44,707 bases of DNA from Escherichia phage phiEco273: the sequence record PP786691.1. One strand, 5' to 3'. A program made the translations under genes and the position numbers. Shown here in pieces: positions 3,585-38,329 of the stretch (its first letter is position 1; each line of letters opens with the position of its first letter). The notes under the pieces are model-generated. The model was not told the DNA's origin, made no database searches, and worked only from the letters and a program-made list of their open reading frames with translations.

Positions 3585-3890
3585 TTATTTCGCAAGCTGG
3601 GCGAATAGCTCGCGCTGGGCTTTAATCCGGGCGACGTTTGTCACTGCCGTCTCACCGATCCCGAAGCGATACGCCAGGCGCTCGCGGGCAAAAGCCATCG
3701 CATATTCGCAGATTGCCACGCGCAGCGGTTCCAGTTCGTCCAGGCTGGCAAACATATCATCGAACGCGTGCATGATTCCCTGCTGGGCCAGGATGACAAC
3801 CTGGCGCGCGTCGTCTGCGTTGCCGTCTGTGTGCTTCGCTTCATACAGCTTCGCCACCGCCATTGTGTAATTCCAGATTAAAGCTCTCAT
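3585..3890 (-). CDS. hypothetical protein
   Basis: 101-aa ORF; ATG at 3890 preceded by GAGGA and by a TATATTGGTTGCACACCAACA element also found upstream of the 38330 gene. Confidence 0.5.
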   Translation of the reverse strand: MRALIWNYTMAVAKLYEAKHTDGNADDARQVVILAQQGIMHAFDDMFASLDELEPLRVAICEYAMAFARERLAYRFGIGETAVTNVARIKAQRELFAQLAK

Positions 3891-4105
3891 CGTTCAGTCC
3901 TCATGTTGGTGTGCAACCAATATAGCAGGGTGCTGGGGCGGGCGCAACCAATATTAATCACGCGTATGAAAAGTTGATCGCTATCTGCTGAAACTGCAAA
4001 CTGCATTTTTCACCCACCATTCTGCAACTCGCATTGGTTGCCTAGTTCATCGACGACCGCAATTTACATCATGTTGCCGTGCATTATGCAATCCAGGATT
4101 TTATG

Positions 4106-4290
4106 CAGTCTCAGACGAGGGGGGTGCCAGACCCCCCGTCTAGTCTGAAAGACTGGGGTGCTGTCCCGCTGTCCCGCTCCTCGCCAGGCCGCGTCATCCG
4201 GGGCGGGACAAGGGTGCTGTCCCGCTTTGTCCCGCCCCTGGTCTGTCCCGCTTTTTGTCCCGCTTAGTTTATGCAGTTTTATTGCATAAC
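4106..4290. repeat. Repeat element copy 1: imperfect GC hairpin (GACGAGGGGGG...CCCCCCGTC) followed by 6 direct and 1 inverted copy of GTCCCGC and TTATGCA(G/A)T motifs
   Basis: Direct reading; about 85 percent identical over ~185 bp to 32399-32585 in the same orientation. Confidence 0.8.
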
Positions 4291-4369
4291 TATTCACTAT
4301 ATTTACACTACACGGCAACCAATACGACCGCCTAAAAGCACGCAAAATGGCAACCAATGCGCGCAAAAT

Positions 4370-4600
4370 TTAATCTTTTAAATCGTCATCGGTCGCTGAA
4401 AGCGTGATGGGGATATCCGATTTGATGACCAAATTAGACGACCCATAGATGGCCCCGGTGTGCGGATCGGTATAGAAACCTATCACTCCGCGCTCCACCA
4501 TATCGTCGATTGCCTTCGTCGAAGTGCCACCTTTTGCCAGCCCAGCCTGGCGGACAATTGCCGATTTACTGAATCCAGTATGGTCCGGGTTGTCTTCCAT
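4370..4600 (-). CDS. hypothetical protein (76 aa from internal ATG overlapping primase stop)
   Basis: ORF 4370..4627; ATG at 4600 overlaps upstream stop by one base, suggesting translational coupling. Confidence 0.4.
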   Translation of the reverse strand: MEDNPDHTGFSKSAIVRQAGLAKGGTSTKAIDDMVERGVIGFYTDPHTGAIYGSSNLVIKSDIPITLSATDDDLKD

Positions 4601-6633
4601 CAGTTTTTCCAGTGCCGCATAAAGCACTTTCTCTTTTCGTTGCGCGGTCCGGCGGTGTTCTCTTCCTTAACCGCGGCCTTGCCTGCCGCCTTCGCCTGTT
4701 CAATAGCGAACGGTGCCAGGGCAACCGGTACGAGGTAGAGAGTCTCGTCGCGTGGCGTGGAGGCAATTGGCTTGACGTCCCATCCGGCAACCACGTCGCC
4801 GAAGTCTGGCCCGGTGCTGGTGGACTGGTGCGCCTCGAACGCTTCTGACTTGCGGAGATCTACCTTAACCTTGCACTTGAGCAGGACGAAGCCACGCGGC
4901 GCTTGCTTGATGCCGTTACGTGACTTCTCATGATACAGGTTCAATTGTCCGGGCTGGTTGTCGTCCGGCTGTTCCAGGAAGAACGCAGAATCGACAGCAC
5001 CATGCAGCGCGCCGGACCCGCGTGGCGTTCTGCTGCCGTTTGCACCTTTAGCCGGGTGGTGGATGACTCCCGCACTACCACCTGTATTTTCCGCGATGGC
5101 CTTCAGCGCTTTGACCACTTCACCCATATCGCTGGCGTTGTTCTCGTCGAACGGTTTAGCATCCGCGGACCGCAACGCAACAGTCTGGTTTAGTGAGTCG
5201 AACGCCACCAGGCCAACCGGTTCGCCGTTAGCGGTGCGGTTGATAAAGCTGATAACTTCGCGCAAGCCTGATTTGCTGGTGATATCCCAGCCGCGTGACT
5301 GCAGGTCTATAATGTGCAGCTTGTCCAGGTCGTGCTCATATTTAATCTGCAATGCTTCTTTACGCTGGTTGGAGGCTTCGCCACCTTCCGCATCGAAATA
5401 GAAGCAATGAGACTGGACGACCTTCGCACCGCCAAACGGAATACCGGCGGCAACCGCTCCCATCTGGCCCAGCACATAGAAAGACTTACCGATATTCGAC
5501 TCGCCAGCCATGTACCAGGTCGATTTAAAGTTAATCAACCCCTCGATAATCGGGTCGTGCTTACTGAACAGCGCAACCGGCTCGTTATCCAGATCCGCAT
5601 CGGTGCACACGCCGTATTCTTCGCCGTCGCCAACCGCATCAACGATATGTTCATAGCACGATTCCACTTCTTCGTCGTCCAGCCCCGGAAGGATGGCGGC
5701 GATTTGCTTACGGGACATATTGTGTGGCTCGACGTTCAGGTGATCCGGGATCCCGATAAGACGTAGCGCCAGGTGCTGGTGTCTGTTCAGTTCCGAGCAA
5801 CACTCGTTACCGGTGTGCATACACTTGAAACGGATCTCGCCATCCTTGACCATGATAGCCGTCGACCCTTCGCCGCTGTGCAGATGTTCGTTCGGGCACG
5901 GCACTTCATAACCGCGACCGGAAGATAACTCCTCGAATCCTGCCTGGAAGCACCAGTCCAGAATACCGTCTGCCACTGCGTCGTCACCCTGGGTAAGCTC
6001 GCGGCGTACTTCCTCTTTTTCCACCCCCAGCTTGTCAGCCAGGCGGAGCAGACGACGGACGCGGGCGCGCTTGCCATAGTGGCACTTAATAACAGACTGC
6101 TGGTGTGGCAGGTACATCAGGCGGTTTGTGTCTTTCGTGCAATCGTCGAAGTCCACATCTGACAGACCCAGTTGGTGTAATAGTGCATACTGGACGCGGC
6201 CCAGGTCTTCAGCCGGTACAGGCTTGTCAGTGAGTACCAGGAATCGAGCGCAACGCGTGCCGCCTTTCAGTGGGTGACGGTCGCCGGTTGTGGTGTGAAA
6301 TACGTGTTCCAGCCCCGCGTCAATGAACGCCTTACGGCAGCGGCGTAGGGTGCGGGTGTCGGTACGGTCAATATCGAAGAACAGGATCGAGCGGTCCACC
6401 GCACTGGTCTTACGACGCAATCCGTCACTGGTATACGCCACGATGCCGTCGGCCTTACGCTTGCGGCGCGCATACTCGGCTTTATCTTCCGTCTTGTTGA
6501 TATGCACCGAGGAGATTTCTTTCGCATCTTTGATAAATTCGAAAAATTCATCGGTGGTCATCTGGAAGTTTTCCGCCCTGGCTTTTTCGCCTTTTTTAGC
6601 GGGTCTTGTAACAGCGAATTTAATTAAGCTCAT
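4600..6633 (-). CDS. DNA primase/helicase (N-terminal primase-polymerase-like domain, C-terminal RecA/DnaB-like P-loop NTPase)
   Basis: 677 aa; Walker A GESNIGKS in C-terminal half; N-terminal region with acidic FFDIDRTD motif resembling prim-pol domains; AAGG RBS. Confidence 0.7.
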   Translation of the reverse strand: MSLIKFAVTRPAKKGEKARAENFQMTTDEFFEFIKDAKEISSVHINKTEDKAEYARRKRKADGIVAYTSDGLRRKTSAVDRSILFFDIDRTDTRTLRRCRKAFIDAGLEHVFHTTTGDRHPLKGGTRCARFLVLTDKPVPAEDLGRVQYALLHQLGLSDVDFDDCTKDTNRLMYLPHQQSVIKCHYGKRARVRRLLRLADKLGVEKEEVRRELTQGDDAVADGILDWCFQAGFEELSSGRGYEVPCPNEHLHSGEGSTAIMVKDGEIRFKCMHTGNECCSELNRHQHLALRLIGIPDHLNVEPHNMSRKQIAAILPGLDDEEVESCYEHIVDAVGDGEEYGVCTDADLDNEPVALFSKHDPIIEGLINFKSTWYMAGESNIGKSFYVLGQMGAVAAGIPFGGAKVVQSHCFYFDAEGGEASNQRKEALQIKYEHDLDKLHIIDLQSRGWDITSKSGLREVISFINRTANGEPVGLVAFDSLNQTVALRSADAKPFDENNASDMGEVVKALKAIAENTGGSAGVIHHPAKGANGSRTPRGSGALHGAVDSAFFLEQPDDNQPGQLNLYHEKSRNGIKQAPRGFVLLKCKVKVDLRKSEAFEAHQSTSTGPDFGDVVAGWDVKPIASTPRDETLYLVPVALAPFAIEQAKAAGKAAVKEENTAGPRNEKRKCFMRHWKN

Positions 6634-7375: not shown

Positions 7376-7894
7376 ATGTTTGAACAAATCGTAAACCTGA
7401 TTACTCGCGGCGTAGTAGCACTGGAAACCATCGCTAAGCATTATGAAACCGTTGGCGCTGCCGTTGGTAAGCCGGAAGACAAGAAGCCGTCTAAGGCCAA
7501 AAAAGAAGTCGTAGAAGATGACGACGATGAAACCGAAGACGAAAAACCGGCGAAAACCAAAAAAGCACCGGCTAAAGGTAAGGCCAAAAAAGAAGTCGTA
7601 GAAGATGACGACGATGAAGAAGCCGAAGACGAAAAACCGGCGAAGGGTAAAAAAGCACCGGCGAAAGGCAAAGGCAAGAAAGATGCCGATCCGCTGGCAG
7701 AGATGCGCGACGAGATCAAACAGTATGCCGCTATTATCGCTGGTGGTGACGACGACGATGCCAACGACGAATTCGACGACCTGCTGGAATCGTTCGAGAT
7801 CAAATCAATCGCCAAGCTGGAAGATGACGACGTCGAAGACTTCCACAAAGATCTTAAAGAAATCGTCGAAACTTATTTCGAACTGGAAGATTAA
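7376..7894 (+). CDS. highly charged acidic/basic repeat protein (172 aa), function unknown
   Basis: First ORF of rightward operon; internal 87-bp tandem duplication (7495-7581 / 7582-7668) encoding KAKKEVVEDDDDExEDEKPAKxKKAPAKG; followed by hairpin terminator. Confidence 0.65.
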   Translation: MFEQIVNLITRGVVALETIAKHYETVGAAVGKPEDKKPSKAKKEVVEDDDDETEDEKPAKTKKAPAKGKAKKEVVEDDDDEEAEDEKPAKGKKAPAKGKGKKDADPLAEMRDEIKQYAAIIAGGDDDDANDEFDDLLESFEIKSIAKLEDDDVEDFHKDLKEIVETYFELED

Positions 7895-10137: not shown

Positions 10138-10920
10138 ATGGCTAAAGTCAACCTGAAAAATGTGCGCGTATGTTTCCTTAAAATTTGGGAACGTGATACC
10201 CCTAAACAGGATGGACAAAAACCGGCATACCGCGCCGTGATTCTTCTTGATAAAGAAGATCCGCAGGTGGACAAAGTGGAAGCGGCAGCGCGCGCAGTGC
10301 TCACCGACAAGCTGAAATCCGAGAAGAATGCCGATAAGTGGATGGACCGCCACTACGCCCAGGATTCTAAGGAATGCGCAGTACGCGACGGTGACGAGCG
10401 CGACGAAGTAACCGAAGAATTCGAAGGCATGTTGTACATCAACGCCAAATCGTTCAAACAGCCAAACATTCAAACGTCACTCGGCGAGAAGCAGACCGAA
10501 CAGGGTCTGACCGTAGAAGGCGACGAAATCGAAGGCCAGGAGATCTACTCCGGTTGTTATTGCAATGTGTCCCTCGATATCTGGGCGTGGAACAATACCA
10601 ACGGCAAGGGACTCGGGGCTGGTTTGCTGGGGCTGCGATTCCGTGACGACGGCGAAGCCTTCGGCGGTGGCGGATCTTCTTGCTCAGACGAGGACCTGGG
10701 CGACGATGACGAAGATGAAAGCCCGCGCAAGTCCAAAAAGTCAAAACGTCGTGATGACGATGACGAAGATGACAAGCCGCGCAAGTCCAAAAAGTCCAAG
10801 CGCCGCGATGACGACGACGATGAGGAAGATGAAAAACCTCGCAAACGTCGTAAGCCACGCGATGACGAAGATGAGGACGACGACGAAGACGAAGCGCCAC
10901 GCAAACGTCGCCGCCGTTAA
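10138..10920 (+). CDS. ssDNA-binding/annealing protein, T7 gp2.5-like (DUF2815-like) with alternating acidic/basic C-terminal repeats
   Basis: ATG at 10138 with GAGGA RBS; N-terminus MAKVNLKNVRVCFLKIWER resembles gp2.5/DUF2815; C-terminal repeats DDDDEDDKPRKSKKSKRR x3-4. Confidence 0.55.
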   Translation: MAKVNLKNVRVCFLKIWERDTPKQDGQKPAYRAVILLDKEDPQVDKVEAAARAVLTDKLKSEKNADKWMDRHYAQDSKECAVRDGDERDEVTEEFEGMLYINAKSFKQPNIQTSLGEKQTEQGLTVEGDEIEGQEIYSGCYCNVSLDIWAWNNTNGKGLGAGLLGLRFRDDGEAFGGGGSSCSDEDLGDDDEDESPRKSKKSKRRDDDDEDDKPRKSKKSKRRDDDDDEEDEKPRKRRKPRDDEDEDDDEDEAPRKRRRR

Positions 10921-16632: not shown

Positions 16633-16666
16633 ATTGGTTGCATAATCGTATTGGTTGCATTATATT
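16633..16666 (+). promoter_or_regulatory. Promoter-like element with two direct ATTGGTTGCAT repeats: -35 TTGCAT (16638-16643), 17-bp spacer, -10 TATATT (16661-16666)
   Basis: Direct reading; same architecture recurs at 38270-38310, 18292-18325, 22216-22248 and on the minus strand at ~3895-3960. Confidence 0.5.
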
Positions 16667-17849: not shown

Positions 17850-18316
17850 AATTACTTATTTGCGATTTGGATGGAGTTATTAACGGTTCAAGCGATGCGC
17901 GCGCCGACCTGGTGCCGGGCATAAAAACTAAATCCACCTTTTGGGCGAAGTGGCACAAAGCGCATATACGCGAAGATCTGAACATGGATATGCTGCCGCT
18001 GCTGACCATGTACAAAGAGCAAGGCTTCGAGATCGCGTATCTGACAAACCGGCAGCGAGAATGCTGGGACACCACAGCCGAGCAATTGGAAGTATTCCCT
18101 AGAGGCCGGTTGTTTATGCGCCACATGATGGACGACACCCCGCCACCAGAGTTTAAGGCGTGCGCCGTGTTCAAAATGGTCTGCTACGCGGACGTGTCGG
18201 AACTGGTCATCATTGAAGACTGTCCGAAGAACATCGCGGCAATTCGTCGGGCGTGCAGCGATTTGGTCCCGAAAATTTATGCGATAAACGTTGCAAAATT
18301 CACTTGCAACCAATAG
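17846..18316 (+). CDS. HAD-superfamily phosphatase (nucleotidase / polynucleotide 3'-phosphatase-like)
   Basis: N-terminal motif LICDLDGVI (DxDG[TV]); 156 aa. Confidence 0.5.
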   Translation: MKLLICDLDGVINGSSDARADLVPGIKTKSTFWAKWHKAHIREDLNMDMLPLLTMYKEQGFEIAYLTNRQRECWDTTAEQLEVFPRGRLFMRHMMDDTPPPEFKACAVFKMVCYADVSELVIIEDCPKNIAAIRRACSDLVPKIYAINVAKFTCNQ

Positions 18317-32398: not shown

Positions 32399-32712
32399 AG
32401 TCTCAGACGAGGGGGGCCATTGACCCCCGTCTAGTCTGAAAGACTGGGCTTTGTCCCGCCTGTCCCGATCGGCTAAAACCCGCGGCAGCACTGGCGGGGA
32501 CAGGGGTGCTGTCCCGCTTTGTCCCGCCTCATTCTGTCCCGCTTTTTGTCCCGCTTACTTTATGCAATAAAACTGAATAGACATTCACATTTTGGGGGCG
32601 GGACAGATCGGGACAGCACCCCTGTCCCGCTTTTAATTTATGCAATTGTGGTGAGTAAATATGCAGTTTTAGAGGTGCGGGACAAAACGGGACGTCCCGC
32701 CTGTCCCGCTCC
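32399..32712. repeat. Repeat element copy 2 (GC hairpin + GTCCCGC array, extended by additional direct/inverted heptamers and TTATGCA motifs) filling the GT-chaperone / tape-measure intergenic gap
   Basis: Direct reading; ~15 heptamer copies; first ~185 bp about 85 percent identical to 4106-4290. Confidence 0.8.
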
Positions 32713-35721: not shown

Positions 35722-36222
35722 TCACCCCCGGAATACGTCAAAATTACCCGCTGCGTTGCCGTCTACATTCACCCAGTAGCCCAGCAAGCCATCCCACCAC
35801 GGGAAAGACACACCGCTACCAATCGTCGCGGCGTCATACTCCATCGTGATCGGGCCTACCGTTTCACGGATAGTCTCCTTTCCATCGCTGACCGGAGAAA
35901 TATCAACATCGTCCGCCACCAACATTGCCAGCCGGTAAACTGCTTGCTCAACGGCAACAGGGATTGATGCGAAGTCTACAATCTGCCCCGCCGGAACTAC
36001 TGTCAAATCTTCAGTAAGCGTGTTTTGCACCGGCTTACCGTCTGACGGGTAGTTGACGCGGGGCCATGCGTCAATTCCGGTCGGGTCCGCTTGTTCGCCG
36101 ATCCAGTCGATGCCGTTAAGGAAGTCATTAACAATGGTAAGGTGTCGCGTTGCGTCGCTCTGCGTAATTTCAACGCCTCGCGCCGCGGCATAAACAACAA
36201 ATGTTTGCGGGTCGCCATACAT
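35722..36222 (-). CDS. head-tail connector / head completion protein
   Basis: ATG 36222 with GGAG RBS (track ORF 35722..36408 has an Arg-rich spurious extension over the capsid gene terminator). Confidence 0.5.
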   Translation of the reverse strand: MYGDPQTFVVYAAARGVEITQSDATRHLTIVNDFLNGIDWIGEQADPTGIDAWPRVNYPSDGKPVQNTLTEDLTVVPAGQIVDFASIPVAVEQAVYRLAMLVADDVDISPVSDGKETIRETVGPITMEYDAATIGSGVSFPWWDGLLGYWVNVDGNAAGNFDVFRG

Positions 36223-36233
36223 TAGATTCACTC

Positions 36234-36262
36234 CTATAAAAAAGGCGGGCTTATGCCCGCCC
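36234..36262 (-). terminator. intrinsic terminator after major capsid gene (GGCGGGC-ATAA-GCCCGCC + TTTTTT on minus strand)
   Basis: Direct reading. Confidence 0.6.
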
Positions 36263-36280
36263 ATTTGGGATGTGCGTAGA

Positions 36281-37312
36281 TCAGGACGCTTTGGTCGGGG
36301 TAAGCGTAACCAGTACGCCTGCCGTTTCCTTGATGTGACGGGTCGGCACTTCCTGCGCGGCCTGGGTCTTACGACGGCCTTTAGTATCGCCATCACCAAC
36401 AGCGCCAACGTCCTGCACGGTTGCAGGGGCGTTGTCTACCTGGCCCTGGTCCAGTTCCCAGTTAGCGGAAGTGGTGATGTCGGACAGTTTGAACGAGCGA
36501 ACACCTTCGACCGGAGTACGTGCGGACGCCTTCAGACGATAGCCTTTAACCGCCACGTTGAAGTCGAACTCGCCCTGCCACCAACGTTCGATGTTCTCGT
36601 TACCGCCTTTCTCCTGCGCCAGCATATCAAGACCGTTGGTAGTAACTGCAACCGCGCCAGGGACCAGACCAAGCATGTTACCCGTGCCCATAGCATCGGC
36701 AGCGGCATCGGAGATAATGAAGCGACGGCCCAGGCCATCACCCATTACCTGGAGATCGCCAATTGCGAATACCTGTTCTGCGGAAGGGAGTGCCTGGTAC
36801 GCAATGAAGTTTGCCCAGGTGACGCCGTCCATAAACCAGGACTTAATCAAAGACGCCTGATCGCCGAACTTAGAAGCCGCCAGCGGGAAGTCTGCCAGGG
36901 TCGGGAAGGTACGACCGCCAACGCCGTCAACGCGCGCCGGTTGGGTGTATTTTGCCGCTGCGTTGCTCTCGATCGCCGCTTTACTTGCGCCGATACCCGC
37001 CTTCAGGTAATGCAGCATAATAGCTTGAGTAGCCTGTGCCGCAATCTCAGCCGCAACGCTGTTAACGTTGGTTTCGATCTTAGCCATCATGGCCTTAGTG
37101 ATTGCTACCGGACCCACTTTCGCCGACAGGTTAACGGAGTTGGTCAGCATACGCGCCAGCACTTTTGCGGTCGCCGGAGTACCGACAGGGGCATAGGCGT
37201 TACGGTCGGTAACGAGGTTGGCGATCAAGCCTACGGACATTTTTTCTACAACGTCCTTCAGCACTTCACCCGTACCGAGAACAACAGCGCCGTTAGCGGC
37301 GGCGTTGAACAC
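36281..37312 (-). CDS. major capsid protein (main ORF; likely true start at ATG 37382 in another frame, see findings)
   Basis: 343-aa ORF from GTG without RBS; ATG with AAAGGA RBS at 37382 opens a 20-codon ORF in a different frame; composition and position typical of a major capsid protein. Confidence 0.7.
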   Translation of the reverse strand: MFNAAANGAVVLGTGEVLKDVVEKMSVGLIANLVTDRNAYAPVGTPATAKVLARMLTNSVNLSAKVGPVAITKAMMAKIETNVNSVAAEIAAQATQAIMLHYLKAGIGASKAAIESNAAAKYTQPARVDGVGGRTFPTLADFPLAASKFGDQASLIKSWFMDGVTWANFIAYQALPSAEQVFAIGDLQVMGDGLGRRFIISDAAADAMGTGNMLGLVPGAVAVTTNGLDMLAQEKGGNENIERWWQGEFDFNVAVKGYRLKASARTPVEGVRSFKLSDITTSANWELDQGQVDNAPATVQDVGAVGDGDTKGRRKTQAAQEVPTRHIKETAGVLVTLTPTKAS

Positions 37313-37479
37313 GTTCAGGTTATCGGGGATTATTTTGCGTAACCGCGGTAACGAGTTTACGCTGGAACACTGTTAAAGACATATCTAAATCCTTTGAGTT
37401 GTGAGCATACGCCCAGTACCGTTAATGTTACCCTAGATTTACGCGCTCGCAAAATTGCCCGCTTTCGCGGGCAATTTGC

Positions 37480-38181: not shown

Positions 38182-38329
38182 GCTATCCCCCTGGGATTGT
38201 GGCAAAGCGGGCCACCCGCTTGACTTCACGCCTTAATATTATCAGCGATAAAAATAATCGCAAAATTCGCTTGCAATCCGAGTATTGGTTGCATTATATT
38301 GGTTGCACACCAACAACGAGGACACAAAA

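Follow-up and report, generated by a model that had tools for sequence, protein, structure and literature searches.

The assembled genome of Escherichia phage phiEco273 raises the question of how its major capsid protein could be translated. Within the window, by which we mean the entire 44,707-nt sequence of record PP786691.1, the 5′ end of the capsid gene is divided between two reading frames on the minus strand. A preliminary description offered three explanations for the break: a sequencing indel, a programmed frameshift, or a real short ORF upstream to which a GTG-initiated capsid protein is coupled. The frame discontinuity can be read off the sequence itself and does not rest on statistics. 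The features of the locus are as follows:

37395-37390, minus strand: Shine-Dalgarno-like AAAGGA, read directly; invariant in six relatives, set off from the ATG by a 7-nt spacer, and serving the true capsid start
36281-37382, minus strand: major capsid (head) protein gene, Gp13-like with an HK97 fold; 1102 nt as assembled, 1101 nt and 366 aa when repaired
37333-37336, minus strand: A4 run with one extra A (A3 in relatives), located by alignment with relatives; the cause of the frame discontinuity
37331, minus strand: private G>A substitution that turns ATG into ATA (M17I after repair) and removes a GATC site that the relatives have
37320-37328, minus strand: CCC CGA TAA in the ATG frame (AAT AAT CCC CGA TAA), the only plausible, and putative, +1 slip site for rescue of the frame were the extra A real
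37320-37322, minus strand: TAA closing the 20-codon frame; in the true frame these three bases do not form a codon (GA TAA C)
37310-37312, minus strand: GTG from which the 343-aa ORF was reported to start; in the 366-aa protein it is no start codon but encodes internal Val24, and no ribosome-binding site precedes it
36243-36262, minus strand: intrinsic terminator hairpin just 3′ of the capsid stop, with an 8-pair stem (7 G-C pairs) followed by TTTTTT

The ATG at 37382-37380 opens a frame of 20 codons, encoding MSLTVFQRKLVTAVTQNNPR, which closes with the TAA at 37322-37320. The 343-aa ORF extends from the GTG at 37312 to the stop at 36281 and occupies the +1 frame relative to this ATG. That frame is open upstream as far as 37372, where the TAA at 37375-37373 closes it. 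The bases preceding the GTG, CCCCGATAACCTGAAC, contain no Shine-Dalgarno-like sequence. Direct reading agrees with the preliminary description on the stop after 20 codons, on the 343-aa ORF in the +1 frame without a ribosome-binding site of its own, and on the upstream limit of that frame. The AAAGGA element and the ATG at 37382 also stand as described, but the spacing between them is 7 nt rather than 8 nt.

Alignment with six relatives locates the break. All six read ACGC-AAATGATCCCCGA at the junction, and the window reads ACGCAAAATAATCCCCGA. The shift point had been correctly placed within the A-rich stretch CAAAATAAT (37337-37329), and the alignment narrows the extra A to positions 37336-37333. 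The private G>A change at 37331 lies two bases downstream of this insertion; otherwise the ribosome-binding site, the ATG, and codons 1-16 are the same in the window as in the six aligned relatives. From the ATG at 37382 to the capsid stop there are 1102 nt, or 1101 nt once a single A is removed. The extra A pushes the frame into the TAA after 20 codons, and an ORF finder therefore restarts at the internal GTG (Val24). In a comparison with five complete relatives the insertion is private to the window. The cause of the discontinuity is a private one-base insertion, and it is not a novel biological feature. Taken with the adjacent substitution, the insertion has the look of a small complex change (TG to ATA) rather than of a plain miscount of run length.

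The window belongs to a Dhillonvirus, an HK578-like coliphage and siphovirus. There are 159 phage records that match the capsid region; almost all are Escherichia or Shigella phages of this genus, and the closest over the region is Shigella phage StarDew (97.6%). Compared as a whole, the window is reverse-complemented and circularly permuted with respect to StarDew and roughly 94% identical to it. No match to the capsid region was found in 5,426 complete E. coli genomes, which indicates a lytic-phage genome; a pseudogene in a decaying prophage was rejected on the same grounds.

The annotations of the relatives agree on where the gene begins. In six of six genomes (StarDew, UAE_MI-01, EE09, EK99P-1, PS2, and Bas84) the major head CDS starts at the equivalent of the ATG at 37382. 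Four of the six annotations are 1101 nt long (366 aa); that of Bas84 is 1095 nt, and the PS2 entry is truncated at its 3′ end to 996 nt. Codons 1-23 contain only three variable sites among the six relatives, all of them third-position and synonymous in the ATG frame. This is the signature of protein-level selection acting on the ATG frame across the junction. The synteny of the head module is also preserved, in the order scaffold gene, capsid gene, terminator, and head-tail adaptor. The scaffold homologue occupies 38229-37483 and is 99% identical to StarDew gp8, and the adaptor homologue follows downstream of the capsid gene.

We note a separate irregularity in the adaptor region. A 228-aa TTG-initiated ORF (35722-36408, minus strand) shares about 130 nt with the 3′ end of the capsid gene, and StarDew has a comparable 690-nt annotation, "head tail adaptor". 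In most of the other relatives the annotated adaptor (Ad1, 501 nt) begins only beyond the capsid terminator, at a position corresponding to the ATG at 36222 in the window, which is preceded by TAGGAG. The longer version at 35722-36408 is probably over-extended.

Deletion of one A yields a stop-free protein of 366 residues, of which residues 1-40 are those of the relatives except for M17I. The repaired protein is 99.5% identical to the StarDew major head protein. It matches the Pfam family PF20036 (Gp13-like major capsid protein) over residues 3-309 of 366 with a score of 205 bits (E = 1.9e-60), against a family cut-off of 26.4 bits, and phrog_247 ("major head protein") over residues 2-364 (E = 4.3e-54). 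It also aligns from residue 1 to 366 with the 366-aa chain of PDB entry 9zys_A ("Major capsid protein gp09"), which starts with MSLTVFQRKLVTAVTQMIPDNL. In every feature of family membership that was tested, the repaired gene is an ordinary member of the Dhillonvirus/Gp13-like major capsid family. It resembles the major head proteins of StarDew (gp9, UGO46620.1) and EK99P-1 (YP_009055288.1) in its 366-aa length, start codon, and ribosome-binding site, and differs from the Dhillonvirus proteins in that the window alone has A4 instead of A3 and carries M17I.

The residues encoded upstream of the GTG are not peculiar to close relatives. The peptide MSLTVFQRKLVTAVTQ is the conserved capsid N-terminus in both close and distant relatives and in the 9zys sequence. 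When searched with tblastn against all phage records, the repaired protein finds matches of 33-48% identity, in a single frame and from query residue 1, in Pectobacterium phage Taid, Klebsiella phage VLCpiS8c, Serratia phage Scapp, and Salmonella SE4-like phages. Among the annotated N-termini that were aligned, M1 and F6 are invariant, and the pattern MS(L/F)x(V/I)F is kept down to 39% identity. N-terminal residues 1-23 share one ORF with the remainder of the protein in relatives ranging from 99% down to 39% identity. The preliminary description had asked whether MSLTVFQRKL is part of the capsid N-terminus; by alignment of the relatives it is, down to 39% identity, and none of their capsid proteins begins at the equivalent of the GTG-encoded residue without the upstream peptide. 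Taken together, the repair, the profile matches, the sequence of the structural entry, the tblastn matches, and the aligned N-termini identify the 20-codon ORF as the true N-terminal part of the capsid protein. In the in-frame product, LVTAVTQ(M/I)IPDNLNVFNAAANGAVVLGTGEVLK is the tryptic peptide that crosses the junction.

The frameshifted junction was not encountered in any other sequence collection. A 111-nt query spanning it matches 157 phage records in INPHARED, the best at 95.5% identity, and each of the 60 matches listed among these 157 spans 110 nt, that is, one base less than the query. Searches for the exact 21-nt frameshifted junction in IMG/VR, JGI metagenomes, and GTDB genomes gave no match. 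The wild-type in-frame junction has 12 exact matches in IMG/VR, and an intermediate allele, with ATA and A3 only, has none there.

The capsid insertion is not the only private indel in the assembly. Compared with five complete relatives (StarDew, UAE_MI-01, EK99P-1, Bas84, and EE09), the window contains exactly four indels of its own, each a gain or loss of one base in a mononucleotide run. Written for the plus strand, these are:

About 3973 (3973-3976): A5 to A4, in a conserved small ORF, which is truncated
About 4634-4638: T5 to T4, in the helicase-primase gene, which is split
About 32337: C5 to C6, non-coding, 8 nt upstream of the tape-measure start
About 37333-37336: T3 to T4, in the capsid gene, which is split

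The helicase-primase gene offers a close parallel to the capsid gene. It is a single CDS of 754 aa in StarDew, UAE_MI-01, EK99P-1, and Bas84, and in the window (4373-6633, minus strand) it is divided into ORFs of 677 and 85 aa in different frames, with the break at about 4634-4642. The run on the gene strand is A5 in five of five relatives and A4 in the window. One added A restores a 754-aa protein without internal stops, 99-100% identical to StarDew gp49, and the portion after the break is 100% identical to StarDew. The small ORF at about 3890-4020 (minus strand) is a homologue of StarDew gp51 and UAE_MI-01 0029 (44 aa); here a gene-strand T5 has become T4, and the addition of one T to this putative ORF restores MVGEKCSLQFQQIAINFFIRVINIGC...TER*. 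The indel at about 32337, G5 to G6 on the gene strand, falls within AAAAAGGGGG(G)ACTGCATAATG just upstream of the tape-measure start, and this stretch is the probable ribosome-binding site of the tape-measure gene.

The same private-to-one-genome criterion was applied to StarDew, UAE_MI-01, EK99P-1, and Bas84 as controls, and the indels were mapped onto the annotation of each relative. These genomes have 2-6 private indels each, all of which are intergenic, multiples of 3, or compensated (+2/−2) within 6 nt. Private coding events break the frame in three of three cases in the window and in none of six in the four relatives, a difference for which Fisher's exact test, calculated by hand on these small numbers, gives about 0.012. 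Private substitutions tell a different story from the indels: the window has 419 and the relatives have 356 to 878. A globally noisy assembly was rejected for this reason, as the substitution load is within the range of the relatives and only the indels stand out. Basecalling error at methylation motifs was rejected as well, the private substitutions showing no enrichment for loss of GATC or CCWGG (5 GATC sites lost and 9 gained; 5 CCWGG sites lost and 4 gained), as in the five controls.

Two of the deposited relatives are irregular in their own right. In EE09 (OR756193.1) the scaffold and helicase-primase genes are annotated in pieces and the sequence contains an N. In PS2 (PV637039.1) the capsid CDS is 996 nt, and a 1321-nt locus is one base longer than that of the other relatives. 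These irregularities are probably similar artefacts, which are evidently not rare among deposited Dhillonvirus genomes.

We consider that the split capsid gene is very probably the product of a homopolymer-length error in sequencing or assembly. On this reading the true gene is the minus-strand frame that opens with the ATG at 37382, closes with the stop at 36281, and encodes a 366-aa Gp13-like capsid protein translated from the AAAGGA ribosome-binding site, and the extra A in the run at 37336-37333 would be one of four single-base homopolymer errors in this genome. The insertion has a defined position, is private to this assembly, restores the protein when removed, and is accompanied by other frame-breaking indels; its origin most likely lies in the sequencing rather than in the phage DNA. 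The indels in the window do not resemble variation that has passed through selection, and a plaque-forming phage with simultaneous frameshifts in the major capsid and helicase-primase genes is implausible, so a residual homopolymer error is the most economical reading. Of the three proposals made for this locus at the outset, it is the sequencing indel in the A-rich stretch that the private extra A and the other private homopolymer indels, which break conserved genes, bear out. The arrangement also resembles the split genes known from homopolymer errors in deposited phage genomes, where changes of one base in runs divide conserved ORFs into adjacent frames; here several sites are affected in one assembly, and comparable fragmentation is seen in EE09 and PS2. 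The capsid site departs from that type in having a run of only A3 and an adjacent substitution, whereas the other three sites are runs of A5, T5, and C5. Several points speak against an assembly error. A3 is a short run by the standard of classic homopolymer errors, and the insertion adjoins a private substitution, so that the two resemble a small complex change rather than a miscount. Natural polymerase slippage likewise favors homopolymers, and the 419 private substitutions are not in excess of those in the relatives.

A rival reading is that the extra A is a genuine mutation of the phage DNA, present in a defective or minority variant or accompanied by low-efficiency rescue of the capsid. 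We regard this as unlikely, though less so than any of the other alternatives. In its favor, the adjacent private G>A suggests a small complex change. Two routes of rescue are conceivable. In one, peptidyl-tRNA-Pro would slip spontaneously by +1 on CCC_C (37328-37325), where CGA and then TAA follow. The product would read ...TQNNPDNLNVFN... across the slip, giving MSLTVFQRKLVTAVTQNNPDNLNVFN..., which differs from wild type at two residues only. CCC_N is a shift-prone codon context in enterobacteria, where tRNA-Pro and its m1G37 modification are implicated in +1 frameshifting, and CGA is among the less used Arg codons (4.8 per 1000 compared with 29 for CGC, in a rough count over the long ORFs of the window). 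Spontaneous +1 slippage, however, typically has an efficiency of around 1%, far too little for a protein needed at hundreds of copies per virion, and the CCC codon lacks an upstream Shine-Dalgarno-like stimulator. In the other route, termination at the TAA at 37322-37320 would be followed by re-initiation at the GTG at 37312, 7 nt downstream. A capsid protein started there would be missing its first 23 residues, which do not vary within the genus and remain conserved down to 39% identity. Both routes would be inefficient for a capsid protein, and neither would explain the broken helicase-primase; the genome would also have to tolerate that frameshift and a third broken ORF. Moreover, the change is absent from the other records in INPHARED, IMG/VR, JGI metagenomes, and GTDB. 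The stronger version, that of a viable phage which truly carries the extra A and makes enough capsid protein by efficient +1 slippage of tRNA-Pro on CCC_CGA_UAA at codon 19 or by re-initiation at the GTG, is very improbable. Were the mutation real, an essential and highly expressed capsid gene would be surviving on recoding by spontaneous +1 slippage that had arisen recently. Transcriptional slippage was also considered and set aside, the A4 run being judged too short.

Two further proposals treat the discontinuity as a functional arrangement, and we give each of them next to no credence. A programmed, evolutionarily maintained +1 ribosomal frameshift joining the short ORF to the capsid ORF has only the local geometry to recommend it, namely a stop in the 0 frame, a +1 frame that is open over the overlap, and CCC_C just before the stop. 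In this it recalls prfB of E. coli (CUU_UGA) and yeast Ty1 (CUU_AGG): a short 0 frame runs to a stop, the product would continue in the +1 frame, and CCC_C, a possible shift-prone P-site codon, precedes a poorly used codon and the stop. Unlike those sites, the one in the window is unconserved, lacks an upstream stimulator, and owes its need for a shift to a private insertion. The sequence upstream of the CCC codon, GTTACGCAAAATAAT, contains no GGAGG-like element, and the string CCC CGA TAA arises only through the insertion, the relatives reading the same bases as ATC CCC GAY AAC. The −1 shifts of T7 gene 10A/10B and of the lambda-type tail chaperones G/GT likewise change frame in a late structural gene. 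Those shifts rely on conserved slippery heptamers close to the 3′ end and give rise to two functional products, and their conservation extends across families; the window would need a +1 shift at the 5′ end, confined to one assembly, without which no capsid protein could be made. Programmed frameshifts are conserved among relatives, yet here no shift is needed in the six aligned genomes, the 60 matches listed of 157, the 12 IMG/VR contigs, or the distant homologues, all of which are in frame. Other homopolymer indels of one base also break unrelated genes in the same assembly.

The remaining proposal, a genuine 20-codon leader or coupling ORF followed by a capsid protein that truly initiates at the GTG at 37312, has in its favor the strong ribosome-binding site and ATG at 37382, and coupling is geometrically possible with the GTG 7 nt after the stop. 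But residues 1-16 of this "leader" match the capsid N-terminus residue for residue in all relatives and in the 9zys chain, the leader residues lie inside the Pfam and PHROG family models and are conserved in distant relatives, and the GTG is an internal Val24 codon without a ribosome-binding site. We conclude that both the programmed frameshift and the upstream ORF are refuted, because the discontinuity is not conserved and the peptide is conserved as the capsid N-terminus.

With a homopolymer error as the preferred reading, the locus is best annotated as one 366-aa capsid CDS from the ATG at 37382, and either the assembly should be corrected or a flag placed at the site. Annotation as a 343-aa GTG-initiated protein together with a 20-aa hypothetical ORF is to be avoided. 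The same correction is due for the helicase-primase gene, split at about 4634-4638, and for one small ORF. More generally, when a single frame break turns up in a highly conserved gene, comparison with relatives and with the remainder of the assembly should come before any appeal to recoding.

Other elements of the genome were observed along the way. Two non-coding copies of an element of about 165 nt (4133-4297 and 32424-32588) are 71-82% identical and rich in GTCCCGC/GGGACAG repeats. One copy lies 3′ of the helicase-primase gene and the other 5′ of the tape-measure gene, and the same pair is found in StarDew. The element may be regulatory or origin-like.

A 12-mer, TATTGGTTGCAC, is present in six copies with no more than one mismatch, compared with an expectation of 0.14, and six copies were reached in none of 100 shuffles. 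Three copies are on the minus strand (3911-3922, 3942-3953, and 18304-18315) and three on the plus strand (16649-16660, 38283-38294, and 38297-38308); they include two closely spaced pairs. This 12-mer is probably a phage-specific promoter or operator motif, and it accounts for the appearance of the peptide YWLHTN in the translations of two unrelated ORFs.

Finally, early-region genes contain in-frame tandem repeats at 7499-7678 and 10702-10869 (2 × 90 nt and 3 × 54 nt), which encode acidic and basic low-complexity stretches (DDDEDE...KPRKSKKSK). The first of these falls within the homologue of StarDew gp47, a protein whose middle part varies among the relatives.
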